A DNA stretch of 64,000 bases from an uncultured Acidobacteriota bacterium (GTDB lineage Bacteria > Acidobacteriota > UBA6911), in assembly GCA_963843575.1 (NCBI GenBank), contig CAWJKZ010000019.1, forward strand, positions 256,001 to 320,000, given 5' to 3'. Position 1 is the stretch's first letter, and each line of letters begins with the position of its first letter. Shown here piece by piece: positions 2,230 to 55,346 of this stretch. Position numbers and translations under genes: made by a program. Below the pieces are notes generated by a model. It saw nothing but the letters and a program-made list of their open reading frames with translations, searched no databases and was not told the origin of the DNA.

Positions 2230-2369
2230 TCGATCCCTTATTTCGCCAATCTCCACGGTTCAATATTCCTGAGCCGCAGGCATCTCACTCGGAAGAACCG
2301 CCCGAAGAATGGCACGCTCACCAAGCCCAATTGCGACGCTGCGACTCTGCGCAACCGTGGACCTCGTAG

Positions 2370-3221
2370 TCAATTGGGGAGCCGCGCCAGCTCCTTTGCG
2401 TAGAGGGGGTTTCCAGGGAATTCGCGCGCCAGGCCTTCCAGCAGATCCCTCGCCTTGCTCGGGGCGTTTTCGCGCATCGCCGCAAAGGCGAGGAGCAGAC
2501 GCGCATACGGCAGCAGGTAGTGTCCTTTTTCCGCGACCAACGTCAGTTGTTCGATCCCCTCCCGCTTGTCGGCCTTGGCGCCATACAGCCGCAGCATCCA
2601 GCGTACCGGGGCGGGACGCAGCCCGAGGAGATAGTTCTCGATGCCGAGGGCGAGGTATCCGTCGTAGTAGGAAGGGTGCAGCGAAAGCAGCTTTTCGCCG
2701 AGAATGCCGGCCTGTTTTATATAGGCGAGGGAAGCGAGGTAGCGCTTTTCAATCAGCCCCGAATAATCCGCTCTCATCCCGAGATTCATCATCCTGGCGA
2801 ACATAGCGTTGGCATCCCCGGGCGAGCGGCGGAGCACCGCGTCCGCGAGCTGGTCGCTTCTCGCCAGGGCGCGCTCGAAACCCTGCCTGGCTGCCGGGTC
2901 TGGAGCGCCGGTCTGCATCCTCTTGAACTTGTAGTCGTCGGTGAACAATTCCGAGCGCAGGATGCCCATCCGATCGAATTCGGAAAACAGGAAAGCCGCG
3001 GCGTCCGAACAGGGGCCCATCGGGTCGTTCGGATGCGAAGCTTCGTACGACCGGAAGCTCTGGTGCGCTTCGGCGAACTGCAGGTTGTACATCTGACGGT
3101 AGCCCGCATCGAGGGGCAAGCGCGGGGAGAGCGCGGTGGTATCTGCTCCGCCCGCCGCGGGGTAAGTACCTTGGGCCATTCCAATGAAGATGGAAAGCAG
3201 GATGATGTTTTGAAAATTCAT
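2370..3221 (-). CDS. Secreted helical-repeat (TPR-like) hypothetical protein
   Basis: ORF 2370..3350; likely start MNFQNIILLSIFIG (signal peptide); helical pattern ending LAREFPGNPLY. Confidence 0.7.
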   Translation of the reverse strand: MNFQNIILLSIFIGMAQGTYPAAGGADTTALSPRLPLDAGYRQMYNLQFAEAHQSFRSYEASHPNDPMGPCSDAAAFLFSEFDRMGILRSELFTDDYKFKRMQTGAPDPAARQGFERALARSDQLADAVLRRSPGDANAMFARMMNLGMRADYSGLIEKRYLASLAYIKQAGILGEKLLSLHPSYYDGYLALGIENYLLGLRPAPVRWMLRLYGAKADKREGIEQLTLVAEKGHYLLPYARLLLAFAAMRENAPSKARDLLEGLAREFPGNPLYAKELARLPN

Positions 3222-3519
3222 CAGAGTCGGTTGATCAGGGGCGGAAATTACCGTGGCCGCCTCCCATCGTCCTCGACGTCGTGCTGCACCGATGACGAAT
3301 TCATCGAAGAGCGGAGGACTCATCTTGCGGACCATGTTACCGCATATCACTGTTCCCGGAGAAGTTGCGTCAAGAGCATCTGGCCGAAACGTTCGTCAGT
3401 CCACCTCTTGGGCATCAGAGTGAAAATTATGGCAGAAAAGTTCACGGTGGCTTTGATCCCGGCCCACGTCCCAGGCAGTCGCTTCGCCCCACGGAACGTC
3501 GTGGGGTGAAAAAGACTCG

Positions 3520-4770
3520 GTGACATCGCTGCTTGTGGGTATGATTCTGCCCTGCGGCATTCTCGCGTTTTGCCCAGGCGTCTTCAGTGGGGGGAACCAG
3601 GTGCCCATTTCGAATCGTAGGGTCGCGTGTTGGATGACGGTCGTTCTGTTCCTGCTCACGCAGCCCGGGTGGGCAGGCCAGAGGCCGAAGAACATCATTT
3701 TGTTGATCGGGGACGGCATGGGAGTCGGGCACGTAACGCTGGCACGGCTCGCTGCCCAAGCCGATGGCAAGACTCTGATGATGGACACCATGAAAACTGC
3801 AGGCCTGGTCCAGACGCGCTCGGCCGATTCCATAATGCCGGATTCTGCGGCAGCGGGCACGGCGCTCGCGACCGGCTGGAAGACCAATAACGACATGGTC
3901 AGTGTGCTGCCCGATACCAGCAACACGAGCGTCGCCAGCATCCTGGAGGTTGCACAGGACCTGAAGAAGTCCACGGGGCTGATTACGGACACGGACATTG
4001 TGGACGCCACCCCCGCAGTCTTCGCAGCCCATGCCAGGTCGCGCGAGGAGTTGCCCGAGATCGCCGGTAAAATTCTGCGGCAAAAGGTGGATGTGTTGCT
4101 GGGGGGTGGCCGGGCTTTTTTCATACCCCAATCCCGGACGGGCAGCATGAGGAAGGACGAGACGGATCTTCTTGCGCGCGCGGCGCAAGAAGGGTACGCG
4201 GTGGTTGGAACCCGGGGCGAACTCGAGCAAGAGCGATCGGGGAAGGTCATCGGCTTATTCAACCTGAGAGCCCTCGCTGCCGGGGCGTCCGAACCCTCCC
4301 TGGCAGAGCTTGCCGATAAAGCCATCCAGCTACTGTCCCGAAATCGGCGGGGATTCTTCCTGATGGTCGAAGGGGACCATATCGACGAGAAAGCGCACGC
4401 CCACGACGCCGCAGGGGTGATTCAGCAACTCCGCGAATTTGACGCGGCGGTGGGAGTGGCGCTTGCGTTTGCGCGGAGCCGGAAGGACACGCTGGTCGTC
4501 GTGGTCGCAGACCATGAGACCGGCGGGCTCGTCGTACTGCCGCCAGCCCAGGGAAGCCCGAAGGCATGGTCGGTCGCCTGGTCCACCGACGATCATTCCG
4601 GCAACAACGTGCTCCTGCTCGCCGACGGGCCAGGCGCCTCGGAATTTGGCGGCGTCCGGGACAACACCGAGATTCCCAAGACTATGGCGAGGTTGTGGAG
4701 GGTAAGGGGCTTCCCACGAAAGATGTCGCCGCCGCCACACGCCGCAGCGTCGCAGGGGACCACCTCATAA
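3520..4770 (+). CDS. phoA: Alkaline phosphatase (PhoA family)
   Basis: KNIILLIGDGMG, PDSAAAGTALATG (catalytic Ser), DATPA, FFLMVEG, ADHETGG; true start probably near 3601-3634. Confidence 0.9.
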   Translation: MTSLLVGMILPCGILAFCPGVFSGGNQVPISNRRVACWMTVVLFLLTQPGWAGQRPKNIILLIGDGMGVGHVTLARLAAQADGKTLMMDTMKTAGLVQTRSADSIMPDSAAAGTALATGWKTNNDMVSVLPDTSNTSVASILEVAQDLKKSTGLITDTDIVDATPAVFAAHARSREELPEIAGKILRQKVDVLLGGGRAFFIPQSRTGSMRKDETDLLARAAQEGYAVVGTRGELEQERSGKVIGLFNLRALAAGASEPSLAELADKAIQLLSRNRRGFFLMVEGDHIDEKAHAHDAAGVIQQLREFDAAVGVALAFARSRKDTLVVVVADHETGGLVVLPPAQGSPKAWSVAWSTDDHSGNNVLLLADGPGASEFGGVRDNTEIPKTMARLWRVRGFPRKMSPPPHAAASQGTTS

Positions 4771-4889
4771 TTTCGCCGGCGCCAAGGCGCCGGGCATTTC
4801 GGCTCATATCGCAAGTCGTAAGCGGCGCCGAGGCGCCGCCACACGGCCGCAGGGGCACACTCGCGGTACGATCGATTGGCGGAGAGGCC

Positions 4890-6350
4890 ATGGAACCGAT
4901 TCGCGTGCTGTCTGATTTGCAGATGGAGCTGATTGACGATGCAGCCGGGGCAATCCTCGAGAAGACCGGGATGATCATGAGATCGGCTGAGGCCCTGGAC
5001 TACCTCGAACGGTTCGGCTGCAGGGTCGATCGCGCGAGCTTCCTCGTCCGGTTTCCGCGGGAACTGACGCGGAGGATGGTGGAAAAAATGCGCCGGGACT
5101 ACACGCAGCCGGATCGGCCCGAGAGGATGAATGTCCGTTTCAGCCACGTTCGCTTCCGGAAGACTCCTCACCAGGTGCATCCCGATTTCACCGTCTCGGC
5201 CGGCGGGTTCGTGCCCTTCATCTTCGACCTCGAGGGCGTGCGCCGCCAGGGCAACCGGCACGATGTTCTCTGCTCGATCAACATGGTGAATCATCTGAAA
5301 CACATCGACCTGACCGGGCTCCCGGTTTCCGACCAGACGATTCCTGCCCCTTACCGCCCCGTCGCGATGGCGGCCGAGTTGGTCAAATACACGCGCAAGA
5401 TCGGCGGCATAGAAACGTTTCGCAAGGAAGACGTGCCGTTCATGATGGAGATCGGGCGGATTGTGGCAGGGCCGGATTCCGAGTTCCGCCGCTGCCCGGT
5501 TGTGGTCGGATACGCCGAGACGCGATCGCCGCTTTGTTTCGACGAAAACATGATCGGTATCTTCCTCTCGTATGTGAAACTTGGCGTACCCCAGACCGTC
5601 GACTGCATGCCATGCGGCGGGACGACAGCGCCTGTTACCGCGGCGGGAGTCCTGGCTCTTGGGGCGGCCGAGACTATCGGTGCGATGACGTTGGCCTATG
5701 CGGTTCGTGAGGACGCCGTCGTCGGCCTGGACATCACTCCATCCTTCGCCGACATGACCAGCGGCAACTTCAAGTACGGCGGCGCCGACCGGTGCAATCT
5801 TCTTATGGCCCGGATTCAGCTCCTCTCGGAATATTACGGCTGCGCTGCCGGCGTCCATGGCGGCAAAACGGACAGCTGCTTTTTCAACGAGCAGACGGGT
5901 ATCGAGAAGGCCGCCACGTTGCTAACGGCGGTCCTGGCAGGCGCGATAGGGGTCGGGACAGTCGGGCATATCGAGAATGCCGTGACATTCAGCCCTGTGC
6001 AACTGGTGATCGACAACGAGATCGCCTCGTACGTCCGGAGGGCCATACGCAGCCCCATCGAAATCACCCCGGAAACTCTGGCCGTCGACCTGATCCACGT
6101 GGTCGGACCGGGGGGGAATTTCCTCAACGCGATGCACACAGCCGAGCATTTCCGAGGCGAGTTGCACCTTTCGCCGCTGTTCCCGGCCCGAGCCTGGGAT
6201 TCAATCCAGCGAAATCGCGCTGCGTTCGACACCGCTGAAAGGGCTGCTCAGATCGCGCGCGAACTTTGGCGACCGGCCTGCGAACCGGTGCTGACGGACG
6301 ACCAGGTTCGTGCTCTGGACGATGTAGTGCGGCGGTCGCAGGCAGGCTGA
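4890..6350 (+). CDS. Trimethylamine methyltransferase (MttB) family protein, no in-frame amber codon
   Basis: ATG 4890 with GGAGAGG RBS; SPL, GGTTAPVTAAG, ADMTSG, QLVIDNEI, VGPGGNFL motifs typical of the MttB superfamily. Confidence 0.85.
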   Translation: MEPIRVLSDLQMELIDDAAGAILEKTGMIMRSAEALDYLERFGCRVDRASFLVRFPRELTRRMVEKMRRDYTQPDRPERMNVRFSHVRFRKTPHQVHPDFTVSAGGFVPFIFDLEGVRRQGNRHDVLCSINMVNHLKHIDLTGLPVSDQTIPAPYRPVAMAAELVKYTRKIGGIETFRKEDVPFMMEIGRIVAGPDSEFRRCPVVVGYAETRSPLCFDENMIGIFLSYVKLGVPQTVDCMPCGGTTAPVTAAGVLALGAAETIGAMTLAYAVREDAVVGLDITPSFADMTSGNFKYGGADRCNLLMARIQLLSEYYGCAAGVHGGKTDSCFFNEQTGIEKAATLLTAVLAGAIGVGTVGHIENAVTFSPVQLVIDNEIASYVRRAIRSPIEITPETLAVDLIHVVGPGGNFLNAMHTAEHFRGELHLSPLFPARAWDSIQRNRAAFDTAERAAQIARELWRPACEPVLTDDQVRALDDVVRRSQAG

Positions 6351-12128: not shown

Positions 12129-12407
12129 TTGAGGATTACCTCTGAGACCGGGCTCGGATTCCTCATTCCGAACGCTGCTTTGGCTTAATCCGCGGATGAT
12201 CTGGCAAATTGTCAGCGCATGCATCCTCCTTTGCCTTTTCTAGTCGAGTAGATCCGGGACCATCCGCAATCCCCAATTCTACCCTTGGCGGCGTATGATG
12301 TGCCGATTCTCATCGGCGCCGGCGCGATCCTGACGGCTGCGCCCCTGCTGGCGGTGCTTTCCCGTGCCGCGCACCCGGCCTTGGCCGGCAGCCGCCGGCA
12401 GGCGGTT

Positions 12408-14141
12408 TTATTTCCCCAGCGCCTGCCTGATCAGGGGCGCGAGCTTCTCCGCCGCGACCCGGTTCCCGTCGAGGTTCAGGTGCACCCGGTCGGTGGTATG
12501 GGCTTGGGGATCGATCCAACCGGTGGTGTCCACGAAATAGACCGATTTTTCGCCCGACTCACGCAGCGCATCCACTGTCTTATGGATGGCATCGCCGTGG
12601 GCCCCCGCAAAAGGTCTCAGGCAGAAAATGGCGGCGGCAGGATAGGTGCGCCGGATGGTTTCGATGTAATGCCTGTACAAAGGGGCGAACACGTCGTCGT
12701 TCACACCGCGGTCGTTAGTCCCCATGTTGACGACGACCGCGTCGGGCAGGCGCTCTTTGTCGACCGGCGCGCCGGCATAAACGAGGGGAAAGCTGTAGGA
12801 ACCGGGGGGCACGCCCCCGTAGCCGTTGATGGACAGCCCCAACCGTCCGAAGCCGGCGATCCGCGGCTCGGCCCCGAGCATCACCGCGCTCTGGTATGCC
12901 CAGGTTCTCCTCCCGTCGCTGTATTGAGGCCAGCGCTCGCGCGCAAGTGGCCCGTTGCCCGTGGGAACCAGCACCAGGATGCCTTCGGTAATGCTGTCCC
13001 CGAGGTACTCTATGATGCGGGCCGGGCGAGGCGGCGGTTCTGTCATCTCCCCGCCGGCGGCCAGGGTCATGCCGCGGAACACGATGCTGCTCTCCAGCGG
13101 CGGGTCCCACCGGCGTTCCCATTCCCGGAATCCCTTGACCACGACCCGGATGACGTGGTCGGTGGCGGCAAGCGGCTCGCGGCTGATCTGCAGTTCCTCC
13201 GCAGGCGCCACGACCTGCCATTCCCGGTCGTCGACCTGAAGCCACAGCGTCGGGAACTGCTGCGGGTAGTGCGTGGTCGAAAAGTGCAGCGTGGCCCCGG
13301 TTCCCCGGAAGCCACAGATGAGCGTGCTCCCGGTATTGACCGTGACCGCCCCGGATTCGGCCGCATTGCGCCTGTCCCAGCGCCCCCAGTACTGAAAACG
13401 GGCGTCGGAGGCGGCGAATTGAGGAGCGGCCGGATACGTCTCGCGCAGGATAACCGACATCGGCACCCCCATCGCACGCAGGATGGCGGCGCCCATCAGG
13501 AAGTCTCCTGCCGGCTTCATGTGAACACCGTCGCTGGTGGGGTGAAAATCGGGTGCACCGCCGGTCTGGGTCGAGCGCAGCGTGAGGTTGAACAGGTCGT
13601 TCAGATCGACCAGGCGGCAGTTTTTCCCGGCCGCGATGCGACGCACGGCCTCGCAGTAGTCCTCCAGCCGCACATTCTCAGGCGAATTCAGGTCCTCCTT
13701 GATGATCGTAGGGGTCAGGAGATAAACCTCCGCCCTGGTCTCCGCCCGAAGGTCGTCGACGATTTTGGAGATCAGCCGCGCATAGGTGTCCAAATCCACT
13801 CCCCTGGGCGGGTCGTAGAATCCGTGCCAGACGTCGTTGACCCCACACGACACCGTTACGACGGTCGGCTGCCTGTCGATGACATCGCGTTTGAGGCGCG
13901 CCGACATATCGGTGGACTTGTGCCCGCCGATGCCGGCGTTGACAATCTCCACCTGCATGTCGGGGTAGTTTCGCTCCAGCACCTTCTTCATGAAGTTCAG
14001 GTAGCCGCCCGCCTGGGTGATGCTGTCGCCGAGCGCGACGATTCGGTCCCCCTTCCTGAGACGCAGCGTGGGCTGCGCCTGCAGCGTGGCACCCATCAGC
14101 GATAGGGCAAGGAACGACAGAAGAAGTCGGCGCGTGGACAT
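12408..14141 (-). CDS. Secreted tandem SGNH/GDSL esterase (GDSL plus CE2-like domain)
   Basis: Start MSTRRLLLS; two GDSIT motifs, GVND/GTND and DGVH/DRVH catalytic motifs. Confidence 0.9.
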   Translation of the reverse strand: MSTRRLLLSFLALSLMGATLQAQPTLRLRKGDRIVALGDSITQAGGYLNFMKKVLERNYPDMQVEIVNAGIGGHKSTDMSARLKRDVIDRQPTVVTVSCGVNDVWHGFYDPPRGVDLDTYARLISKIVDDLRAETRAEVYLLTPTIIKEDLNSPENVRLEDYCEAVRRIAAGKNCRLVDLNDLFNLTLRSTQTGGAPDFHPTSDGVHMKPAGDFLMGAAILRAMGVPMSVILRETYPAAPQFAASDARFQYWGRWDRRNAAESGAVTVNTGSTLICGFRGTGATLHFSTTHYPQQFPTLWLQVDDREWQVVAPAEELQISREPLAATDHVIRVVVKGFREWERRWDPPLESSIVFRGMTLAAGGEMTEPPPRPARIIEYLGDSITEGILVLVPTGNGPLARERWPQYSDGRRTWAYQSAVMLGAEPRIAGFGRLGLSINGYGGVPPGSYSFPLVYAGAPVDKERLPDAVVVNMGTNDRGVNDDVFAPLYRHYIETIRRTYPAAAIFCLRPFAGAHGDAIHKTVDALRESGEKSVYFVDTTGWIDPQAHTTDRVHLNLDGNRVAAEKLAPLIRQALGK

Positions 14142-14781: not shown

Positions 14782-14847
14782 GCGAGCAGTTTTGATCGGA
14801 CGCGTGAGCAAAACTGAACAGACACGTGAGCACCCCTGGGGTATAAA
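14782..14847 (+). promoter_or_regulatory. Tandem-box promoter P1 (small membrane protein and Crp paralog 1)
   Basis: GCGAGCAGTTTTGATC + GTGAGCAAAACTGAAC (22-bp period); CAGACA-N17-TATAAA. Confidence 0.85.
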
Positions 14848-14975
14848 AATTGCGGGTCCGGCAGGATCAACCGTTTTTTCCAGGGCGTGGAAGTCCACTG
14901 CAGCCTGGCCAAAAGCACTGAACGGGGCGCGAACCCTTTTGGGTTTTGCTTCAAACAGACAGCGGGAGGTTTATC

Positions 14976-15161
14976 GTGTCTTTAATTAGTCTCGTCATGG
15001 TCTTGATCGTAGTCGGCGTTCTCCTTTGGCTGGTGAATAACTATATTCCAATGGCGGGCTCAATCAAAAGGATCCTGAATGCCGTCGTGGTTATCGCCGT
15101 GGTTTTGTGGCTCTTGAATGCTTTTGGAGTTCTCAGTTCCCTCTCCAGGATACGCATCTGA
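14976..15161 (+). CDS. Small two-helix membrane protein (Thivi_2564-like)
   Basis: GGGAGG RBS, GTG start; SLISLVMVLIVVGVLLWLVNNYIPM...ILNAVVVIAVVLWLL. Confidence 0.8.
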   Translation: MSLISLVMVLIVVGVLLWLVNNYIPMAGSIKRILNAVVVIAVVLWLLNAFGVLSSLSRIRI

Positions 15162-15242
15162 GGGGAAGCACAGGCGGACAATGATAATTCGTGCCTGTTT
15201 ATGCCCGCTTTGCAGCCAAGCGGCAATGGAAAGGATGTTTTC

Positions 15243-15902
15243 ATGCCAAGTAAGAAAAGCTCGCCTGTCGATTGGGAAGCCGTTCTCGCTGGAATCTCTC
15301 ACGGGAAGACCATTTCGGAATACGGCCCGGACCGCCGCATCTTCGATCAAGGACAAGCCGCGGATTCCATATTCTATCTTCGACAGGGAAAGGTGAAGCT
15401 GTCGGTTATATCCAAACAGGGCAAGGAAGCGATCGTCGCGACACTGGGCGCCGGCGAGTTCCTCGGCGAGGGGTGCCTCGCAGGGCAGCCGTTACGCATG
15501 GCAACGGCTACAACTGTCACGGAGTGCAGCCTCTTCCGGATCGAGAAGGTGTTGATGCTGCGCGTGCTTCACGAGAAGCACGAGATCTCGGAATTGTTTG
15601 TCGCTCATTTGCTTTCTCGAAATGTCCGATATGAAGCGGATCTCGTGGACCAGCTTTTCAATTCGAGCGAAAAGCGTCTGGCGCGGATCCTCCTCCTGCT
15701 CGCTCATTTTGGCAAGGAAAGCAGAGCCGAACGTGTGTTTCCCGAAGTCAGTCAGGATAACCTTGCACAAATGATCGGCACGACCCGGTCGCGGGTCAGT
15801 CATTTCATGAACAAGTTCAGGAAGTTGGGCTTTATCGATTACAGCGATAACGACGGCCTGACGGTCAACAGTGGCCTGCTCAGCGTGGTTCTGCACGACT
15901 AG
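15243..15902 (+). CDS. Crp/Fnr family transcriptional regulator (paralog 1)
   Basis: cNMP-binding fold (IFDQG, GEFLGE...R) and C-terminal HTH (SQDNLAQMIGTTRSRVSHF). Confidence 0.92.
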   Translation: MPSKKSSPVDWEAVLAGISHGKTISEYGPDRRIFDQGQAADSIFYLRQGKVKLSVISKQGKEAIVATLGAGEFLGEGCLAGQPLRMATATTVTECSLFRIEKVLMLRVLHEKHEISELFVAHLLSRNVRYEADLVDQLFNSSEKRLARILLLLAHFGKESRAERVFPEVSQDNLAQMIGTTRSRVSHFMNKFRKLGFIDYSDNDGLTVNSGLLSVVLHD

Positions 15903-16091: not shown

Positions 16092-16157
16092 GTGAGCAAT
16101 CTTGATCTCCTCCGTGAGCTGTACTGAACTGACACGCTATCCACCCTAAAGTATAAA
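16092..16157 (+). promoter_or_regulatory. Tandem-box promoter P2 (OmpA-family gene)
   Basis: GTGAGCAATCTTGATC + GTGAGCTGTACTGAAC; CTGACA-N17-TATAAA. Confidence 0.88.
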
Positions 16158-16407: not shown

Positions 16408-18099
16408 ATGTGGAATATGAGATTGATAAGCATGTTTCTGGCGTTATGTGGCTTGTCGTGCGGTTTGCTGTCCGCACAGACGCCGCAGGCCGCGAATGAG
16501 ACACAGCAGTTGGTTCAAGGCCAACCGGACAGTTCGATACCTGTTTATCGCGTCACCGTGATTGAACGGACCATGAAGGCGATAAACTACCAACACCGAA
16601 GCGGCGCCACAAAGATCGATTTCCGCGGCACCGATCTCCTGCCGATGGCCCATGGAGAGGCCAAAGTGGAGAGCAAAAAGGGCTACATCGAGATCGAAGT
16701 GGAATTCGATAAACTGCAGCCGGCCAGCAAGCACGGGGCCGAATACCTCACCTACGTGCTCTGGGCCATTACCCCGGAAGGCCGCACGGCCAACCTGGGC
16801 GAGATTCTCCTGAACGGAAGCAGCGGCAAGCTGAACGTGACCACCGAGTTGCAGGTCTTCGGCCTTGCTGTGACGGCAGAGCCTTACTTCGCGGTGACCA
16901 TGCCAAGCAACCTGGTCGTGATGGAAAACGTGGTGCGCGGCGACACGAAGGGCAAGATCGAGGAGATGGACGCCAAGTACGAATTGCTGCAGAGAGGCCA
17001 GTATGAACGTTTGGTGAATCCGCTGGCGCTGAAAAGCGATCCGAAGGTGCCGCTGGAACTCTACGAGGCACGCAACGCTGTTCAGATCGCCCGTGCCATC
17101 GGCGCGGACCAGTTCGCCTTAGAAACCTTCACCAAGGCCGAAAACAGCTTGAAGCAGGCCGAGGCTTACCAGGCGCGCAAAGCGGGGCGCAGACCTGTAA
17201 CCATGACGGCTCGGGAGGCGGTGCAGACCGCGGAGGATTCCAGAGCAATCGCGGTGCGGCGCCAGGAGGAAGAGCGTCTTGCGAGCGAACGCCAGGCGGG
17301 CGCGGACCGAGAAGCGCTGGCCAAAGCAGAGACCGAGACCGAGGCACGCCTGAGGGCGCAGGCAGAAAGCGACCAGAGGATGGAGGCTGACCGACGGGCG
17401 CGTGCCGAGGCTGAACGGAACGCGGCCCAGTCCGAAACCGCGATTGTCAAACTCGAGGCCGAGGCAACGCGAGTTGCCGCTCAGACAGAGGCTGATCGTG
17501 TCCGACGCGAGAACGACGCGGCGCGCGACGCGGCTCAGGCCGAAGCCGAGCGGGCAGCACGTTCGGCAGCGCAAGCCGAGGCTGACAGGACGCTGCTGGC
17601 AACTCAGGAGGCCGACCGCCTGCGGCTGAAGGCAGAGGCTGAAAAGGCGGAGCTGCGCGCTCAGCTATTGAGCCAATTTAACTTGATTCTCGAAACTCGC
17701 GATACGGCCCGCGGCCTGATCGTGAACATGTCGGACGTTCTTTTTGACACGGCCAAGTACACGCTGCGCCCCGGAGCACGTGAGAGGCTCGCCAAAGTCG
17801 CTGGCATTCTGCTGGGACACCCGGGCCTAAAGCTGGCGGTAGAAGGCCATACAGATAGTGTGGGTGGCGAGTCGTACAACCAGCACCTCTCCGAACAACG
17901 AGCCGGATCGGTGCGCGACTATCTCATCCAACAGGGGATTTCGGAGATGAACTCGTCTCCGGCCAAAGGGTTTGGCGAGTCACAGCCCGTAGCCACGAAC
18001 GATACCGCCGCCGGCCGGCAGCACAATCGGCGCGTAGAACTCATTGTCTCCGGCGAACTCATCGGTACGCAGATCGCCTCGGTAGGCGGTTCGCAGTAG
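16408..18099 (+). CDS. OmpA-family peptidoglycan-binding protein with long Ala/Glu/Arg coiled coil
   Basis: Signal peptide; C-terminal DVLFDT, VEGHTD, NQHLSEQRA, NRRVE motifs. Confidence 0.92.
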   Translation: MWNMRLISMFLALCGLSCGLLSAQTPQAANETQQLVQGQPDSSIPVYRVTVIERTMKAINYQHRSGATKIDFRGTDLLPMAHGEAKVESKKGYIEIEVEFDKLQPASKHGAEYLTYVLWAITPEGRTANLGEILLNGSSGKLNVTTELQVFGLAVTAEPYFAVTMPSNLVVMENVVRGDTKGKIEEMDAKYELLQRGQYERLVNPLALKSDPKVPLELYEARNAVQIARAIGADQFALETFTKAENSLKQAEAYQARKAGRRPVTMTAREAVQTAEDSRAIAVRRQEEERLASERQAGADREALAKAETETEARLRAQAESDQRMEADRRARAEAERNAAQSETAIVKLEAEATRVAAQTEADRVRRENDAARDAAQAEAERAARSAAQAEADRTLLATQEADRLRLKAEAEKAELRAQLLSQFNLILETRDTARGLIVNMSDVLFDTAKYTLRPGARERLAKVAGILLGHPGLKLAVEGHTDSVGGESYNQHLSEQRAGSVRDYLIQQGISEMNSSPAKGFGESQPVATNDTAAGRQHNRRVELIVSGELIGTQIASVGGSQ

Positions 18100-18651: not shown

Positions 18652-21600
18652 ATGACAGAGGATAAGGATCGCCCTACGGCAGAACGCCCCTCCGGGCCAA
18701 CGCCAGACGCCTCACTTGTCGATGATGAAGGGGAAACGGTGTCGGATCGGGACGTCGCGCCGGACACGGAAGAGAATCGCACGCGGTCGTTCCCCGTCGT
18801 TGGCATCGGCGCCTCTGCCGGGGGGCTCGAGGCGTTCACGCGGCTCCTGCAGCACCTTCCCGTCGATACCGGTATGGCCTTTGTTTTTGTCCAGCACCTG
18901 GCTCCCCAGCACTCCAGCATGCTGGCCTCTTTGTTGTCGCGAACGACCACGATGCCGGTCATGGAGGTTCAGCATGGGACGCCGGTTCAACCCAACCACG
19001 TATACGTAATCCCGCCCAATACTCTCATGAGCATCGCGGACACCGTCCTTGAACTGGAGCCTCGCCCCGACGAGCGCGGTGCACCAAGGCCGATCGACCA
19101 TTTCTTCCATTCCCTGGCGGCGGACCGGAAGGGGAGCGGGGTTGGCGTGATCCTCTCCGGTGCGGACTCCGATGGGGCTTTGGGCCTGCAGGCGATTCGC
19201 GGGGAGGGTGGCATCACCATCGTTCAGAGCGAAACCTCGGCAAGACACGCCGACATGCCGCGGGCAGCTATCGCTGCCGGAACAGTGGACATGATCCTGT
19301 CCCCTGAAGAGATTGGCGGTGAGTTGGCGCGGATCACCCGGCACCTATCCACAATCGGACGAAATACTGCAGACGATTCCCGAAAGTGTCCCGGTGACGA
19401 GTCTCAACTGAACAGGATCTTCGCACTCTTGCGGAGGGCGACAGGAGTCGATTTTCGCGGATACAAGCGCGGAACGGTGTGGCGACGCATCACTCGTCGC
19501 ATGATCCCGCGACGCCTGGAGGATATTGAGACCTACATAACCTATCTCGAATCAAATCCTTCGGAGCTGCCGGCCTTGCATGATGACATCCTCATCAATG
19601 TCACCGGTTTCTTCCGCGACCCCGAGGTTTTCCAGGCCTTCGAAAATGAAATTCTGCCCCGACTGGTGCACAAACGGGCGAGCGCTGTGCCCTTGCGTGT
19701 CTGGGTACCGGGCTGTTCGACAGGAGAGGAGGTCTACTCCATCGCGATGTGCCTGGCCGAATCGATTGGCGGCCTCCCTGCCCCATTCCCAATCCAGATC
19801 TTTGGCACCGACCTCAGCGAACGGGCGATTGCGATTGCCCGGAGTGCAATTTACTCGGAGGTCCAATTGGCCGGAGTCTCGCCCGAGCGGCGGGCACGCT
19901 TTTTCGCCAGCGTCGAGAACGGCTGGCAGATCGTCAAATCGGTTCGTGAAATGGGCGTTTTCGCGCGCCAGAACGTGTGCGTCGACCCGCCCTTTTCCCG
20001 CCTCGACCTGATAAGCTGCCGGAACACGCTGATCTATCTCGAGCCTGTCTTGCAGCGCCAGGTGGCCGCTACCTTTCACTATGCGTTGAGACCTAACGGG
20101 TACCTTATGCTGGGTCGTTCGGAGGGCTTGCGTGGCTTCCCGGACCTGTTCTCGGTCATAGACAAGCAGCACAAGTTTTACGCCAGAAGGCCCAGTCGTG
20201 GCCAGGTGAGCACGGAATTGATCACCCGCGGATTTGCCGGTGAACAGCCCGCAACAATCCCATCCCTGCCGTCAGCCCCGAAGGAGAGGTCATTTGAGAC
20301 GGAGCTTGAAAAAGAAGCCGAGCGCATTGTTTGGAGTGAACACGCGCCGGCCTGGGTGATTGTGAACGAAAGGCTCGAGATCATCCACTCCCGTGGGGAC
20401 ACGAGTCCTTATCTGAAACTCGCGCAGGGACGAGCGACACTCGAACTCCTTAAAATGGTGCGGGAAAGCATTCGGGGCGAGTTGCGGGCGCTCCTGACAA
20501 GGGCGAAGGACGAGGATGGTCCGGTCCAGGCGGCCGTCTGGCGAGAAAAGGAGGGCGGCGAAATCGGCGGTGTCGGGTTGGAGGTACGCCGTATAGCGGG
20601 CTCCACGAAACAGGAGGGCTGCTTTCTGGTCCTGTTTTTGGACCGCAGGGTCGTCGGGGCGCCCGCATCGGCGGCGCGATCCGGAAGGAAGCGAGCACAC
20701 GGTGAGACCATGTCCGGCACAGCTGAGGTGGAGCGGCTCCGGCAAGAGCTCGTCCTCACGAGCCAACGGCTCCAATCCATGATTGACGAGCGCGACGCGG
20801 CCAACCAGGATCTCACCTCCGCAAACGAAGAGATTCAGTCGAGCAACGAGGAACTGCAGAGTATCAACGAGGAACTCGAGACCTCAAAGGAAGAACTGCA
20901 GTCGAGCGTTGAGGAACTGAACACGATCAATGCGGAGATGGAGAACCGGAATCAGGAGCTGAACAACCTCAGCGACGACCTGGCCAATATTCTGAGAAGC
21001 GCATCGATGCCGATGCTTGTGATTGACAACGACCTCCGCATCAAACGGCTCACGACCTCGGCCGAGCGCTTCCTCAACTTCCGGTCGAGCGACCTCGGCC
21101 GGCCGATCGCGGATATTCGGACGCCTCTCAGTATGGAGGCACTGGAGCCGATGGTGCGGCGGGTGCTCGAGACACTGAATCCCGAAGAAATGGAGTTGCA
21201 GGATCGCGACGGACGCTGGCACATGCTCCACGTTCGTCCTTATCGGACGTCCGACAACCGGATGGACGGCGCTGTCCTGGTCCTGGTTGACATCGACCAG
21301 GAGCGGCGCGCGTTAATCGCAGCGGAGGCTGCGCGTCAGTTTGCCGAGTCGGTGATAGAGTCGGTTCAAACGCCTCTTCTGGTGCTGTGGAGCGATTTGC
21401 GGGTCCGATTGGCAAACCGGGCCTTCTTCCGCTCGTATGGCTTACAGCCCGCCGACGTCGAGAATCGGTTTTTGTATATGGTGAGCGGCGACCGGTGGAA
21501 CCTGCCTGGCCTGAGAACCGCCCTGGGGCGGCTCTCAGCGGACCAGGAGTCCGTCGATGCTCTCGAATTCGAACAGGAGTATCCCGGATCGGGCAAGAGG

Positions 21601-22503
21601 ACGCTCCTGATCACTGCACGCAGGATCCAGCCGGACGAGGAGCATCAGATACTCCTAGCAATCGAGGACGTCACGGCCCAGAGGCAGGCAGAATCTGTTC
21701 TGCGCACAGAGCAGGAACGGCTGAGGCGCACCGTGCAGAAAGGCGCAGCGGAGCTGGAGAGGACTAGCGAGAGTTTGCGAACCGAAGCTTCGGAAAGAGA
21801 GCGGGCGGAAACGGCCCTGCATCAGAGTGAGGGGGACCTGCTCCACACACGTGAAGAGCTGCGCGCACTGACCGCGAGTCTGCTGACGAGCCAGGAAGAA
21901 GAGCGCCGCCGGGTTTCCAGGGAGCTGCATGACGACTTGAGCCAGAAATTGGCCAAGTTGCAGTTTGACGTGGAGACGCTTGAAAAGCAACTCCCCTCCG
22001 ATCTGACGGACGGGAAGAGACGCCTCCAGAGCATCCGCGACGAGGTCGCTGTCCTTTCCAACGACCTGCGCAGGATCGCGTACGAACTTCATCCGTCGAT
22101 GCTGGATCATCTCGGCCTCCCGGTCGCATTACGGGCCTTCAGCCGCGAGTTTTCCGAGCGCGAGGGGATTCCGGTCAGGTTCAAAGCTCGTAAAGTGCCG
22201 GAACAAATCTCGCCGGAGGTTGCGAGCGCTCTTTATCGAATCACCCAGGAAGCCCTGCGCAACGTCGCCAAGCACGCCGGGAAGACAACCGTGAAAATCA
22301 CGCTGACGGGAGGTCCAAACGAGGTATCGCTGTCGATTCGGGACGATGGCATCGGCTTCGATTCCCACTCGGTGCACGATAAACGCGGACTGGGGCTGAT
22401 CAGCATGCAGGAACGGACGAGGCTGCTCCACGGGGAGTTCTCCCTCGAGACATCCCCGGGACACGGCGTGATCCTTACGATCCGCGTACCCCATATTGTT
22501 TGA
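18652..22503 (+). CDS. CheB/CheR fusion protein with PAS domains and HisKA_3-type histidine kinase
   Basis: GIGASAGG, VQHL (CheB); VTGFFRD, WVPGCSTGEE, ISCRN (CheR); NEELQS coiled coil; RELHDD H-box; DDGIGF...GLG. Confidence 0.93.
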   Translation: MTEDKDRPTAERPSGPTPDASLVDDEGETVSDRDVAPDTEENRTRSFPVVGIGASAGGLEAFTRLLQHLPVDTGMAFVFVQHLAPQHSSMLASLLSRTTTMPVMEVQHGTPVQPNHVYVIPPNTLMSIADTVLELEPRPDERGAPRPIDHFFHSLAADRKGSGVGVILSGADSDGALGLQAIRGEGGITIVQSETSARHADMPRAAIAAGTVDMILSPEEIGGELARITRHLSTIGRNTADDSRKCPGDESQLNRIFALLRRATGVDFRGYKRGTVWRRITRRMIPRRLEDIETYITYLESNPSELPALHDDILINVTGFFRDPEVFQAFENEILPRLVHKRASAVPLRVWVPGCSTGEEVYSIAMCLAESIGGLPAPFPIQIFGTDLSERAIAIARSAIYSEVQLAGVSPERRARFFASVENGWQIVKSVREMGVFARQNVCVDPPFSRLDLISCRNTLIYLEPVLQRQVAATFHYALRPNGYLMLGRSEGLRGFPDLFSVIDKQHKFYARRPSRGQVSTELITRGFAGEQPATIPSLPSAPKERSFETELEKEAERIVWSEHAPAWVIVNERLEIIHSRGDTSPYLKLAQGRATLELLKMVRESIRGELRALLTRAKDEDGPVQAAVWREKEGGEIGGVGLEVRRIAGSTKQEGCFLVLFLDRRVVGAPASAARSGRKRAHGETMSGTAEVERLRQELVLTSQRLQSMIDERDAANQDLTSANEEIQSSNEELQSINEELETSKEELQSSVEELNTINAEMENRNQELNNLSDDLANILRSASMPMLVIDNDLRIKRLTTSAERFLNFRSSDLGRPIADIRTPLSMEALEPMVRRVLETLNPEEMELQDRDGRWHMLHVRPYRTSDNRMDGAVLVLVDIDQERRALIAAEAARQFAESVIESVQTPLLVLWSDLRVRLANRAFFRSYGLQPADVENRFLYMVSGDRWNLPGLRTALGRLSADQESVDALEFEQEYPGSGKRTLLITARRIQPDEEHQILLAIEDVTAQRQAESVLRTEQERLRRTVQKGAAELERTSESLRTEASERERAETALHQSEGDLLHTREELRALTASLLTSQEEERRRVSRELHDDLSQKLAKLQFDVETLEKQLPSDLTDGKRRLQSIRDEVAVLSNDLRRIAYELHPSMLDHLGLPVALRAFSREFSEREGIPVRFKARKVPEQISPEVASALYRITQEALRNVAKHAGKTTVKITLTGGPNEVSLSIRDDGIGFDSHSVHDKRGLGLISMQERTRLLHGEFSLETSPGHGVILTIRVPHIV

Positions 22504-22516
22504 ACAAGGAGCCTGT

Positions 22517-23170
22517 ATGCGACGACCGCGCCTGCTGCTTGCCGATGATCACACATTGCTGCTCGAGGGAATCCGGCTCTTGCTGGAGCCGGAGTTTGAG
22601 CTGGTAGGCAGCGTAGAGGACGGGCGTGCGCTTCTGGAGGCCGCCAAAGATCTCAAGCCCGATGTCATTCTTCTCGATATTTCAATGCCGATTCTGAATG
22701 GAATCGATGCAGCGTACCGGCTCCGGAAGCTTGTGCCATCAGCCAGAGTGATTTTTCTCACAATGCATGCGGATGCAGACTATGTGGCAGAAGCGTTTCG
22801 GGCGGGCGCAGCCGGCTACCTTCTGAAGCGGGCAGCAGCCTCGGAGTTGCTCACCGCAATCCGCGAAGTGATGAAGGGTCATCATTATGTAAGCCCGTTG
22901 GTTACCCGGAATGCCCTGGAAGTGCTGGTCAAATCATCGAAATCGCCGGGCAAGTTCGCACATGCCCTGACTCCGCGCCAGCGCGAAGTCCTGCAACTGG
23001 TGGCCGAAGGCCGAAGTCGGAAAGAAATAGCGGCGATCCTGAACATTTCCGTGAAAACAGTGGAGTTTCACAAGGCGGCAATCGGAGAGAAACTCAACCT
23101 GCGGACTGTTGCGGATTTCACGCGCTATGCCATCGAGCACGGCATCGTTGCGACGGACCGGACCTCTTGA
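22517..23170 (+). CDS. NarL/FixJ family response regulator
   Basis: LLADDH, LLDISMP receiver; LTPRQREV...SVKTVEFH LuxR-type HTH. Confidence 0.93.
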   Translation: MRRPRLLLADDHTLLLEGIRLLLEPEFELVGSVEDGRALLEAAKDLKPDVILLDISMPILNGIDAAYRLRKLVPSARVIFLTMHADADYVAEAFRAGAAGYLLKRAAASELLTAIREVMKGHHYVSPLVTRNALEVLVKSSKSPGKFAHALTPRQREVLQLVAEGRSRKEIAAILNISVKTVEFHKAAIGEKLNLRTVADFTRYAIEHGIVATDRTS

Positions 23171-26601: not shown

Positions 26602-26668
26602 CTTATCCCCTGGGACTAATGCACGTGTCAGTTCAATACTGCTCACAGGTTTGGTCAAAATTGCTCAT
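26602..26668 (-). promoter_or_regulatory. Tandem-box promoter P3 (secreted protein and phosphoesterase)
   Basis: Minus strand: ATGAGCAATTTTGACC + GTGAGCAGTATTGAAC; CTGACA-N18-GATAAG. Confidence 0.85.
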
Positions 26669-28211: not shown

Positions 28212-28278
28212 GTGAGCAATTTTGATCAAGTGTGTGAGCAATACTGGGCTGACACGCGAACTGCCGCCGCGGTATAAG
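28212..28278 (+). promoter_or_regulatory. Tandem-box promoter P4 (secreted kinase-like gene)
   Basis: GTGAGCAATTTTGATC + GTGAGCAATACTGGGC; CTGACA-N18-TATAAG. Confidence 0.87.
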
Positions 28279-28416
28279 AAGTGTGGCTCGCGCTGCCAGT
28301 GGCAATAGTGGTGCAGCGCATTACCCTATCTCGCCGCAAGATTCACCGAATTGCGCTCGCGGGCAGCTGTGCGGCAAACCGAGGAATCGGACTGCGCTTT
28401 TTCTTGAGGAGGGACC

Positions 28417-29385
28417 ATGCGAGATCACAAGAGGATCTTCTCCATCATTCTTGCTCTTTTTCTGGCGCTGCCCGCCTTCGCTCAGCAGGCCGGGACCCAC
28501 CGTCGCGCTGTGGCGCGACCGGGGCGACGTTCCGGCTCTGGACCTCCTGGACGGGCCGGGAGGGAAAAATCGCCAGCCGGGGACCAACTTTAAATTCATC
28601 AAGGAATCCAAAGGCGGGACTTCGCCCAAGTTTGAGGTCGAAGATGAAAACGGCGCCAAGTGGAAGGTGAAACTCGGCCCCGAGGCGAAGTCGGAAACCG
28701 CTGCAACGCGCCTGGTGTGGGCTGCGGGTTACCTTGCCGATGAGGACTACTACCGGCCGCAAATCCGCGTACAAGGAATGAAACCGCTCTCCCGCGGTCA
28801 GGAGTACGTGTCAGACGGTGGCATTGTCCGCGAGGCGCGTTTGGAGCGCCAAGACGGCGGGAAGAAATTGAAGAACTGGAGCTGGTACGATAACCCCTTT
28901 GTCGGCACGCGGGAGTTCAACGGCCTCAGAGTGATGATGGCGCTCATCAACAACTGGGACCTGAAAGAAGACAATAACGACGTATATGACGAAGGCGGCG
29001 CCGGGAACGGTACGTGATCTCCGATTTGGGCGCCAGTCTCGGCCGCACCGGCAACAGCTTCGGCCGCAGCCGCGGCGTGATGAAGGACTACGCGGAAACC
29101 AAGTTTATCAAAAAGGTCACCCCCGAATACGTGGACTTCGTCATGCACAGCCGACCCTTCTTCCTTACCATTTTCTATTTCCCCTACTACCTCTCCCGTA
29201 CGCGGATGGAGAGTGTGGCCACGCACATTCCTATCGCGGACGCACGCTGGCTTGGCAACCGGCTCGGCCAGTTTTCCCCGGAGCAGATCCGTGACTGCTT
29301 CCGCGCCGCCGGCTTCTCGCCCGCCGAGGTCGAGGGCTATACCAGGGTCGTGATGCAGCGCATCGAGGCGCTGAAGAAGCTATAG
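28417..29385 (+). CDS. Predicted secreted protein-kinase-fold protein; frameshifts near 28497 and 29010
   Basis: GAGGAGG RBS, MRDHKRIFSIILALFLALPAFAQ signal; GGTSPK, WKVK, NWDLKEDN, ISDLG motifs across ORFs 28283..29017 and 29014..29385. Confidence 0.7.
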
Positions 29386-36199: not shown

Positions 36200-36266
36200 A
36201 TGATAAAAGGGGTGAAGACCGGCGTCAGTTCACTTGTGCACACCCCATTAGTTTCTCGATGCACAT
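36200..36266 (-). promoter_or_regulatory. Tandem-box promoter P5 (divergent; amidoligase-like gene)
   Basis: Minus strand: ATGTGCATCGAGAAAC + GTGTGCACAAGTGAAC (23-bp period); CTGACG-N17-TATCAT. Confidence 0.65.
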
Positions 36267-36330
36267 CCGCTCCTTAGGAGCGGCAGTCTCATCCACTCGG
36301 AGTTTCCACCGGGGACGGCGATCCCGCGTT

Positions 36331-36396
36331 GTGAGCATTATCGGACACACGTCTGAGCGATATTGTACAGACATCGGTCTGCGGCGGCCCCATAGT
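36331..36396 (+). promoter_or_regulatory. Tandem-box promoter P6 (dodecin)
   Basis: GTGAGCATTATCGGAC + CTGAGCGATATTGTAC; CAGACA-N17-CATAGT. Confidence 0.75.
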
Positions 36397-36516
36397 AGCG
36401 GGCCTGGGCCGCATCGCGGCCCTCCGCACAATGCGTGTCGCAAGCGACGGTTCGTGCGGGTCGGGGAGTCCGCTCCCGCCGGAATTCGGAGTAATGCAAT
36501 TCACAGGAGGTCGTCC

Positions 36517-36720
36517 ATGACAGTAGCAAAAGTCGAGGAAATCAGCGCCACTTCCACCGTGAGTTTTGAGGACGCCATCGGTCAGGGTCTGGCCCGGGCG
36601 GTCAAGACGCTACGCAATGTTCGCAGCGCCTGGGTGAAGGAACAGCACGTGCGCCTCGATGGCAAGAAGATTGTCGAGTATCAGGTGAACATGGCCGTCA
36701 CCTTTGTGCTGGAGGACTAG
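36517..36720 (+). CDS. Dodecin-family protein
   Basis: AGGAGG RBS; VAKVEEISATSTVSFEDAI...KTLRNV...YQVNMAVTFVLE. Confidence 0.9.
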   Translation: MTVAKVEEISATSTVSFEDAIGQGLARAVKTLRNVRSAWVKEQHVRLDGKKIVEYQVNMAVTFVLED

Positions 36721-36873: not shown

Positions 36874-36939
36874 ACGGGCAATACTGACCAGACGTCTGAG
36901 CACTATCGAACAGACACGCGCTTGTCCTTGGAGTACAAA
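36874..36939 (+). promoter_or_regulatory. Tandem-box promoter P7 (PBP and mgtA)
   Basis: ACGGGCAATACTGACC + CTGAGCACTATCGAAC; CAGACA-N17-TACAAA. Confidence 0.78.
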
Positions 36940-41943: not shown

Positions 41944-42009
41944 ATGAGCAATTTTGACCGGATTTGTGAGCAGTACTGAACTGACATGCGAATTACTCGG
42001 GGGTATAAG
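41944..42009 (+). promoter_or_regulatory. Tandem-box promoter P8 (closest to consensus)
   Basis: ATGAGCAATTTTGACC + GTGAGCAGTACTGAAC; CTGACA-N17-TATAAG. Confidence 0.9.
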
Positions 42010-42181
42010 AAGTGTGTCTCGAGTGGACCGCGGGGGTCGGGTGTGTTCGAATGAGCGGCCTACCGGTACGGGAGTCCCTTACAGCGACTCAACCTACTGA
42101 GGCACCGAGGGTGGCGGAAGTTGTCGAGAAAAAACAGATCGACGCGTGGTTTTGCATAGTTCGTTAGGTTTGGGAAATGAT

Positions 42182-42787
42182 ATGAAGAAACTATTGGGAC
42201 TCTTCGCCTTGACAACGCTGGCTTTTGCCCAGGGGGGAACGATCGGCAGCGGCACCAGCATATCGGTTCGGACCAGTGAAAGAATCGATGTAAAGAAGAG
42301 CGACGGCCGGGTATTCACCGGCGTTGTAGATCAGGATGTGAGGGATGCGAACAGCCGCGTTGCTATTCCAAGGGGTTCGCAGGTGGAGCTGGCCGTGAAG
42401 AGACTGGCACAGAGTGATCTGGTGCTCGATTTGGAATCGGTCACCGTAGGCGGGCATCGGTATGCGGTAACAGCGGCCGATGCTGTGATGGATAAAGAAC
42501 GGCGGGATGGTATCGGTAAGAACCAGCGGACCGCCGAGTATATCGGCGGCGGGGCGTTGCTGGGCACGATCATTGGCGCGATTGCCGGCGGAGGAAAAGG
42601 CGCCGCAATCGGCGCAGCGGCGGGAGCGGGGGCGGGAGCGGGCACGCAGGTCCTGACCCGAGGCAAGAAGGTGAACGTTCCCGCCGAGTCCTTGTTGACG
42701 TTCCGTTTGGAGAAGTCGCTCCAGATGGGAGTGGCGGACAGTGGGATCACTCGCAACGGCCGCCATTATCACAAGACGATTCGGTAG
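42182..42787 (+). CDS. Secreted protein with glycine-zipper hairpin
   Basis: MKKLLG signal; IGGGALLGTIIGAIAGGGKGAAIG; PAESLLTFRL. Confidence 0.85.
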   Translation: MKKLLGLFALTTLAFAQGGTIGSGTSISVRTSERIDVKKSDGRVFTGVVDQDVRDANSRVAIPRGSQVELAVKRLAQSDLVLDLESVTVGGHRYAVTAADAVMDKERRDGIGKNQRTAEYIGGGALLGTIIGAIAGGGKGAAIGAAAGAGAGAGTQVLTRGKKVNVPAESLLTFRLEKSLQMGVADSGITRNGRHYHKTIR

Positions 42788-43319: not shown

Positions 43320-43976
43320 ATGGAGAACAAAAAGACCCAGCCTGTCGATTGGGAAGCTCTGCTCAACGGCATCACACGGGGGAAGACCGTTCTGGAATGT
43401 GGGGCGGACCGCAAGATCTTCCGACAAGGACAACCTGCGGATTCCCTATTCTACCTGCGGCGAGGCAAGGTGAAGCTCTCAGTAATATCCCAACAGGGCA
43501 AAGAAGCGATTGTCGCTATTCTGAGCGCCGGTGAGTTTTTCGGCGAGGGGGGCCTTGCCGGTCAACCACTGCGTATGGCATCGGCTGTTGCGATGACAGA
43601 TTGCACCATTGACAAGATTGAGAAGTCGGTGATGACGCGAATGCTTCACGAACAGCACGACGTCTCGGAATTGTTTGTCAAGCATCTGCTTTCACGCAAC
43701 GTCCGATACGAAGCTGATCTCGTGGACCAGCTTTTCAACTCGAGCGAAAAGCGGCTGGCTCGGATTCTCTTGCTGCTTTCCCATTTCGGCAAGGAAAGCA
43801 GGGCTGAACCTGTAATTCCCAGAGTGAATCAGGATACCTTGGCACAAATGGTCGGCACGACCCGGTCGCGCATCAGTCATTTCATGAACAGGTTCAGGGA
43901 GCATGGCTTTATCGAGTACGACGACGTCGGATTGACCGTCCACAGCAGCCTACTAAGCGTGGTACTCCACGATTAA
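43320..43976 (+). CDS. Crp/Fnr family transcriptional regulator (paralog 2)
   Basis: Colinear with 15243..15902; shares HLLSRNVRYEADLVDQLFNSSEKRLARILLLL; helix TTRSRISHF. Confidence 0.92.
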   Translation: MENKKTQPVDWEALLNGITRGKTVLECGADRKIFRQGQPADSLFYLRRGKVKLSVISQQGKEAIVAILSAGEFFGEGGLAGQPLRMASAVAMTDCTIDKIEKSVMTRMLHEQHDVSELFVKHLLSRNVRYEADLVDQLFNSSEKRLARILLLLSHFGKESRAEPVIPRVNQDTLAQMVGTTRSRISHFMNRFREHGFIEYDDVGLTVHSSLLSVVLHD

Positions 43977-49431: not shown

Positions 49432-49456
49432 CCGGGGGTCCTTGTTCGGTGATGTT

Positions 49457-55283: not shown

Positions 55284-55346
55284 GGTGATAAGAATTGGTG
55301 ATGAAGAGGCTTTGGGATCAAGAGAAAAACGAAAGCGGGGTTGGTT

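Follow-up and report, generated by a model that had tools for sequence, protein, structure and literature searches.

Crp paralogs and tandem-box promoters at the locus

The window, i.e., the whole 64,000-nucleotide (nt) stretch of the uncultured Acidobacteriota contig CAWJKZ010000019.1 analyzed here, harbored two genes coding for Crp/Fnr-family regulators, Crp1 and Crp2, lying among repeated copies of a long operator-promoter made of two tandem boxes (Table 1). P1, at 14783 the leftmost of these sites on the contig, preceded a small open reading frame (ORF) of 61 amino acids (aa), read as a membrane protein, and then Crp1. An earlier reading of this DNA, hereafter the original prediction, had placed Crp1 as the second gene after P1 at the left edge of the cluster, which the ORFs and the site map bore out. 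Comparative sequence evidence points to the Crp clade as the best candidate reader of the tandem boxes, with one paralog under its own box, a reading to which we assign a probability of roughly 0.6. The case for it is built on the co-occurrence of motif and clade, on the geometry and position of the boxes, and on the failure of a NarL-type regulator encoded nearby.

Both proteins matched the Pfam families cNMP_binding (PF00027; E 9.5e-19 for Crp1 and 3.5e-20 for Crp2) and HTH_Crp_2 (PF13545; E 1.7e-10 and 5.6e-10), always above the curated cut-off, and were 74.4% identical over 219 aa. A whole-genome tblastn search displayed a third paralog on another contig (Crp3, C9:114956-115597, 76% identical) and, besides these three, just distant Crp-family genes. 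The recognition helix stretches were GTTRSRVSHFMNKF in Crp1 and Crp3 and GTTRSRISHFMNRF in Crp2, with GTTRSR[V/I]SHFMN common to all three. In the HMMER alignment of Crp1 to the closest solved structures (E 3.6e-17, spanning residues 29-202), RSRVSH stood opposite RETVNK of the Mycobacterium tuberculosis CRP, so that the Crp1 helix appears as the counterpart of CAP's RETVGR minus its glutamate. The helix of CAP proper, RETVGR with Glu181, was absent, with RSRVSH or RSRISH in its place. FNR has the helix E--SR, a feature that Crp1 and Crp2 did not display, their helix being devoid of Glu. An FNR-type N-terminal cysteine cluster was not found in either protein, residues 1-80 containing zero Cys. 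The original prediction had announced two close Crp/Fnr paralogs with a nearly identical helix, lacking both the helix glutamate and the FNR cysteine cluster, and the family matches, the alignment and the protein sequences agreed with it on each of these points.

Its further claim that the GE...R elements of the cyclic nucleotide (cNMP) pocket are kept stood in part. The phosphate-binding stretch (GEGCLAGQPLRMATA) retained Gly-Glu and Arg, but the pocket Arg was followed by Met instead of Ser or Thr (RM in 74 of 82 clade genes), and Y-E aligned to the T-N of the M. tuberculosis CRP C-helix in the HMMER alignment. As judged from these residues, the pocket of Crp1 and Crp2 is partly conserved. 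The helix motif RSR[V/I]SH was present in 71 of the 82 clade genes (at least 64% identity), and Crp1, Crp2 and Crp3 are, by their sequences, members of an uncharacterised Crp/Fnr subfamily defined by this F-helix motif. The subfamily was found in Acidobacteriota of one class, the records of its relatives being titled Terriglobia or Acidobacteriota.

The tandem operator-promoter

A repeat search delineated a family of 74 nt in 9 copies in the window, to which a position weight matrix (PWM) added one minus-strand and one weak copy, bringing the window to 11 sites. About 28 sites were found in the 6.68-Mb genome, 19 of them on the same contig between 270 and 342 kb, in an island of about 70 kb. 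The motif consisted of a 45-nt tandem operator (TGAGCA-N4-TGACCA, 6 nt, TGAGCA-N4-TGAACT) abutting -35 and -10 hexamers of the sigma-70 type. Counting from the first T of the operator (index 0), box A spanned index 0-15 and was followed by 6 unconserved bases, box B spanned index 22-37, the -35 (cTGACA) index 36-41 and, after 17 unconserved bases, the -10 (TATAAa) index 59-64. In other genomes, 104 more sites at 50 loci conformed to this consensus, with invariant G (index 1, 11, 23, 33) and C (index 4, 14, 26, 36) in 102 to 104 of them, while the -10 hexamer started at index 59 in 60 of 101 sites and at index 60 in 25. The invariant bases of each box were two-fold symmetric (TG..CA-N4-TG..CA).

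Allowing at most 2 mismatches, the pattern had 26 matches in the source genome, whereas 137 genomes of the class, searched with the reversed pattern, gave no match at all; the tandem motif is far beyond chance. A repeat-element origin of the 74-nt family was considered and rejected because spacers and flanks were not conserved, the motif positions alone being so, and the family is therefore an operator-promoter. An extra element after the -10 (GTGCCTCGA in some sites) showed no conservation when 132 sites were compared.

If transcription is assumed to begin 7 nt past the predicted -10 hexamer, box B is centred at -41.5 and box A at -63.5 (index 29.5 and 7.5), the two 16-bp boxes having their centres 22 bp apart. 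Four environmental RNA libraries provided short contigs, mostly 90-95% identical, which covered coding parts only, without transcript ends. A terminator-like hairpin with a T-run was observed at 14855-14880, at the predicted P1 start, as a weak match (3 found, 2.0 expected); no terminator-like site was found between the 61-aa ORF and Crp1.

Distribution of the motif and of the Crp clade

The motif (at most 2 mismatches) and the clade (at least 64% identity) were distributed together across the 137 genomes. The motif was present in 44 genomes and the clade in 42, with both in 41 and neither in 92. The distribution was patchy within genera (e.g., in genus g2 the motif was found in 18 of 30 genomes), which indicates several gains or losses. 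Three genomes displayed the motif only (G111, G035 and G129), and the first of them carried an 80%-identical C-terminal clade fragment at a contig end. In G006, G013, G045, G109 and G113, which each gave one strict hit, this site was less than 2 kb from a clade gene. Among the matches listed, RSRVSH was kept by all 7 distant relatives (47-58% identity) that had a tandem site no more than 8 kb away, and it was found in none of the five distant relatives from motif-free genomes. Reading of the ORFs revealed no second regulator gene common to the minimal loci L002, L003, L004, L066 and L070.

The pattern, shortened to 20 bases, was also scanned for exact matches in bacteria and archaea as a whole, each species being represented by one genome, and yielded at least 107 stretches. 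Among the matches listed, 40 of 107 stretches (at most 8 kb each) held a clade gene, and nearly all stretches came from records titled Acidobacteriota or Terriglobia. Five motif-bearing genomes with divergent record titles (as deposited: two Acidimicrobiia, one Acidimicrobiaceae, one Desulfomonilaceae and one Gammaproteobacteria) were searched whole, and in four of them, those titled Acidimicrobiia, Acidimicrobiaceae and Desulfomonilaceae, the clade was encoded at 67-77% identity in the same region as the sites. Loci with the motif in records so titled (L086, L110, L116, L119, L125, L127, L134) had 51-58% G+C; mislabelling, mis-binning or transfer may account for these records.

The DNA-binding domains found in the island were those of Crp1, Crp2 and a NarL/GerE response regulator only. 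This last protein, fed by the CheB-CheR-PAS-HisKA_3 kinase, might read the boxes in the manner of DosR, and the original prediction had held it as the next suspect. It is encoded in the island directly behind that large sensor kinase, and its clear orthologs were restricted to motif-bearing genomes. However, of the 25 motif-bearing genomes among 61 relatives, only 11 had an ortholog with 73% identity or more, and genomes that were 96-97% complete with 5-9 sites each (G031, G033, G034, G052) had best matches of 41-48%, which is the level of generic paralogs encountered in motif-free genomes as well. The NarL regulator was rejected as box reader on this phyletic pattern, and we hold this explanation to be very improbable.

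Gene order around the Crp paralogs

A maximum-likelihood tree of 87 clade genes defined a Crp1 orthogroup of 18 members, 15 of which had a tandem site on the same strand within 800 bp upstream. The site lay 85-304 bp away in 13 of them, and 461 and 719 bp away in two, the window's Crp1 included, where the gap between site and gene holds the small ORF. Of the remaining 69 clade genes, 9 had an upstream tandem site.

Crp2 had no box of its own within 1.3 kb and no second box or palindrome in front; none of the genes of its orthogroup had a tandem site upstream. A gap of 532 nt separates it from the preceding Gly-zipper gene (42146-42787), and no terminator-like site was found in this gap. In the Crp2 orthogroup, kaiC was the next gene in 5 of 5 loci with downstream DNA (L041, L043, L081, L040, L037), and a sixth locus had kaiB and a kinase next. 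The Crp-kaiC order was also observed beside a sister-clade Crp (L007). In one genus, the genes for the CheBR kinase and the NarL regulator were followed by a member of another Crp orthogroup. In other genomes, more divergent paralogs whose third helix residue is Gln (RSQISL, RSQVNH, RSQISR, RSQIRR; L013, L016, L050, L061) were each encoded 114-143 bp behind a tandem site, which suggests a cascade to regulators of other specificity.

Sister clade and palindromic sites

A sister clade, 50-58% identical, displayed the helices RSRVNF, RPRISF, RPRVNF and RPRVTY. Its genes (RSRVNF, RPRISF) adjoined perfect TGTTCA-N4-TGAACA palindromes in 3 of 6 loci, and one 3.3-kb sister-clade stretch contained four of them. 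One such palindrome was located 430 bp after Crp3, before a PRC-barrel gene, with the same -35/-10 layout. A class-wide search returned 37 palindromic sites in 30 genomes versus 7 control matches; sites per genome were too few for a co-occurrence test of the sister clade. In G128 (C1:712997-730832), three perfect palindromes lay within 18 kb with no close Crp of either clade. Around Crp3 (C9:108000-122000), two inverted 384-aa ORFs about 9 kb apart (2233-3387 and 12390-13544 of that stretch), likely transposases, had identical printed 50 N-terminal residues. As they bracket Crp3, the palindromic box and the PRC-barrel gene, this copy may have moved as a unit.

Proposed mode of action and its alternatives

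At class II promoters the proximal site lies near -41.5, and a second site can stand upstream on the same face. The predicted centres at -41.5 and -63.5 correspond to class II and, roughly, class I positions, hence to a class III Crp-dependent layout, and for this reason the protein would most likely be an activator that contacts RNA polymerase. One dimer would occupy each of the two 16-bp boxes. If contacts are as in the solved complexes of CAP and Clr, the invariant G of TG would be read by the first Arg of the helix, while the Arg at position 3 would recognise the G opposite the invariant C. Since the Crp1 orthogroup sits behind the box, activation would imply positive feedback. The original prediction had proposed positive autoregulation, and the position under the box (15 of 18 genes) agrees with it, but the feedback is positive only if the protein activates. 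Crp2 may be the input paralog, linked to the kaiC-kaiB-histidine kinase unit.

Several observations weigh against the Crp clade as reader of the boxes, the first of them in the operator itself. The inner dinucleotides were asymmetric (AG on the left; AC in box A or AA in box B on the right), and the orientation of the boxes to the gene was always the same, a conserved asymmetry that is not expected from a two-fold-symmetric homodimer. The paralogs cannot explain it, as their helices are the same and the source genome has no sister-clade partner that tblastn could find. The right half of box B may be constrained because it overlaps the -35, which leaves box A unaccounted for. Heterodimers, or one paralog per box, as the original prediction had envisaged, obtained no support: the paralog helices carry the same RSR[V/I]SH, and many two-box sites were present in genomes where one paralog was detected (10 sites in G105 and 6 in G133, each with 1 gene). 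Its broader claim, binding of the tandem boxes by the Crp proteins, is the reading that the comparative evidence best supports.

As TG..CA is its own complement, the half-sites can also be read as direct repeats TGAnCA spaced 10, 12 and 10 bp, which they fit at least as well (each of the four has the T, G, A and C and, mostly, the final A). A factor encoded elsewhere could read these four units on the same face, as winged-helix response regulators such as PhoB and OmpR bind head to tail, and the Crp genes would then be mere members or neighbours of the regulon. Many Crp genes indeed lie behind a box themselves, and co-occurrence and proximity could reflect linkage instead of binding, since these genes sit in the island and are partly regulon members. 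Sites were also found in genomes with no detectable clade gene. G129 displayed 5 good sites on 4 contigs (84% complete; top Crp match of 27% identity), which is the pattern named beforehand as speaking against the Crp clade, yet it is indistinguishable from a missing contig. In G139 (2.4 Mb), which had 5 sites, the whole-genome search found no clade gene, and in G035 (81% complete) one site with 2 mismatches was detected and no clade gene. Conversely, the sole clade-only genome, G057, had a single 3-mismatch site 7.5 kb from the gene. The co-occurrence that the original prediction had put forward as a check was observed in 41 of the 44 motif-bearing genomes of the class; G129, one of these 44, and G139, from the wider scan, had several sites and no detectable clade gene. 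On the other side, the island codes for no head-to-tail regulator of this kind, a site that is the only one of its genome stays beside a Crp gene, the helix type tracks the presence of the motif, and true palindromes with this geometry accompany the sister clade. We regard a direct-repeat reader encoded elsewhere as unlikely.

The promoters themselves raise another difficulty. Separated by 17 nt, the -35 (cTGACA) and the -10 (TATAAa) come close to the consensus, so that an activator may or may not be needed, the -41.5 position rests on a predicted -10, and 3 of 18 Crp1 orthologs had no site within 800 bp upstream. The promoters could be strong by themselves and the Crp clade could bind the boxes and repress, occluding the -35 region until a signal releases it, a reading with which the strong hexamers and the abutment of box B on the -35 agree. 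However, CAP and FNR systems have their activators at -41.5 and -63.5, a repressor would leave the second box, two helical turns upstream, without a reason, and Crp1 under its own box would rather fit amplification. Repression is in our view quite unlikely.

In a more far-reaching version, the operator might be a general stress or dormancy switch of Terriglobia, in which a Crp subfamily with non-canonical cAMP use would act as a dimer of dimers and require an obligatorily asymmetric four-repeat site of fixed orientation (TGAnCA at 10, 12 and 10 bp), the paralog co-transcribed with kaiC-kaiB and a histidine kinase would feed in a clock or hourglass input, and the boxed paralog would lock the state by positive feedback. 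This extension is speculative, and we consider it improbable in this complete form.

Genes behind the sites

Judged from their predicted domains, the genes behind the sites form a set of the general-stress type. The regulon would comprise about 28 promoters, with genes for CsbD, YflT, PRC-barrel, OmpA-like, Gly-zipper, dodecin, SPFH and small membrane proteins, a penicillin-binding protein (PBP) and a P-type ATPase. Outside the window, genes behind sites coded for SPFH and STAS proteins and for a weak Hsp20 match. The rightmost site of the island (contig 342019) preceded a secreted protein gene, followed by genes read as groES and groEL from their first residues (3249-5232 of locus L035, where the site is at 2019); this chaperonin operon near the site may belong to the regulon. 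Two intergenic repeats of two copies each with a CCTGTTATTCTGTGACAGACCCTA core (24706-24793/29651-29738, 94% identical, and 24776-24819/32932-32975, 89% identical) showed no relation to the tandem boxes.

Table 1. Tandem-box sites and genes of the island in the window (window coordinates)
Feature	Position	Strand	Description
P1 tandem-box promoter	14782-14847	+	Box A 14783-14798, box B 14805-14820, -35 14819-14824, -10 14842-14847; PWM 59-64
61-aa hydrophobic small ORF	14976-15161	+	Directly follows P1; begins with GTG, 6 nt behind GGGAGG; without Pfam family
Crp1	15243-15902	+	Crp/Fnr-family regulator, F-helix motif RSRVSH; second gene after P1; Pfam PF00027 and PF13545
P2 tandem-box promoter	16092-16157	+	Before OmpA-domain protein gene 16408-18099
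CheB-CheR-PAS-HisKA_3 kinase	18652-22503	+	Pfam; 1283-aa fusion of CheB methylesterase, CheR methyltransferase, PAS and HisKA_3 kinase
NarL/GerE response regulator	22517-23170	+	Pfam; directly after the CheB-CheR-PAS-HisKA_3 kinase
Tandem-box promoter	26603-26668	-	PWM 69.7; before 26385-25801 (no known family) and 25804-24914 (metallophosphoesterase)
Tandem-box promoter	28212-28277	+	Before two ORFs without known family, 28283-29017 and 29014-29385
Weak tandem-box site	36331-36396	+	PWM 22.6-32; before dodecin gene (Pfam Dodecin domain within 36259-36720)
Tandem-box promoter	36874-36939	+	Before class A penicillin-binding protein (to 39349) and P-type ATPase (39489-41918)
Tandem-box promoter	41944-42009	+	Top PWM score in the window; before Gly-zipper protein gene
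Crp2	43320-43976	+	Paralog with RSRISH helix, without own box; kaiC next in relatives
KaiC; KaiB; PAS-HisKA_3 kinase	44176-45846; 45990-46253; 46647-47825	+	Pfam; downstream of Crp2
Tandem-box promoter	47970-48035	+	Before YflT-like stress protein gene (48192-48794) and RNase II-type gene (49373-50932)
Tandem-box promoter	54203-54268	+	Before small membrane ORFs, e.g., 54421-54645
Tandem-box promoter	55218-55283	+	Before small membrane ORF (55341-55496) and Ysc84-CsbD protein gene (55708-56700)
Tandem-box promoter	61692-61757	+	Before PRC-barrel protein gene 61779-62705

Comparison with known systems

Crp1 and Crp2 share with CAP/CRP of Escherichia coli the two-domain family (PF00027 and PF13545) and the first Arg of the F-helix motif. 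As in class II and III promoters of CAP, the proximal site abuts the -35 and the second site stands two helical turns upstream. The helix of CAP is RETVGR, whereas it is RSRVSH here, without the Glu, and the CAP site (TGTGA-N6-TCACA) was not matched, the regulon boxes being TGAGCA-N4-TGA[AC]C (TGAGCA-N4-TGAAC compared with the CAP site). The boxes are also asymmetric and fixed in orientation, the promoters retain a good -35, and the cAMP pocket is partly conserved (RM versus RS). The best matches among solved structures, at E 3.6e-17, were the CRP of M. tuberculosis (Rv3676) and GlxR of Corynebacterium, which differ by their helix (RETVNK), their CAP-like sites and the lack of a link to a tandem stress operator.

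The structure PDB 7pza, which we take to be Clr of Sinorhizobium meliloti, matched Crp1 at E 1.4e-10. According to the description of Clr in PMC10187061, this protein, solved with DNA, has the F-helix RPKVNR without Glu; the first Arg reads G2/T3, and the Lys at position 3 contacts the G opposite a conserved C. The same source gives its site as HGTYHC-N4-GRWACA (TGTTAC-N4-GTAACA) and describes class I, II and III Crp-dependent promoters (PMC10187061). Clr binds cAMP and cGMP with canonical pocket residues. In these described features, Clr resembles the present proteins as a Crp without Glu, with a basic residue 3 and a 6-N4-6 site geometry, and its first-described site TGTT-N8-AACA fits the sister-clade palindrome TGTTCA-N4-TGAACA. 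It differs in that its conserved C is at position 6 and not 5, in 4 of the 6 helix positions (the sister clade, with RPRVNF and RSRVNF, being closer to Clr), in the canonical pocket residues, not all of which are kept here, and in its single symmetric sites, as opposed to tandem asymmetric ones.

The DosR regulon of M. tuberculosis serves in stress or dormancy and has many promoters that bear, around -40, a long conserved operator in one or two copies. The present system would resemble it in these respects, but DosR is a NarL-type response regulator, and the NarL-type gene of the island failed the co-occurrence test. DdrI of Deinococcus radiodurans, a Crp-family protein from another phylum, is likewise involved in stress adaptation and is reported to bind DNA without cAMP (PMC11253593).

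Significance

Acidobacteriota are among the most abundant soil bacteria. The literature searched gave no description of the control of stress-survival genes in Acidobacteriota, of the RSR[V/I]SH Crp subfamily or of the tandem operator. What is new here is a proposed Crp-type class II/III system of an understudied phylum, in which a new helix would go with a new operator of odd asymmetry and with a stress regulon. The analysis provides a concrete and testable candidate pair of regulator and operator, which comprises about 28 promoters per genome, has a sharply delimited site of 45 nt and extends over at least 4 families of the class. If this pairing is true, RSRVSH with TGAGCA would be a new DNA specificity for the Crp family, the operator would be a case of conserved asymmetry, and KaiBC systems outside cyanobacteria would have a possible tie to a transcription factor.

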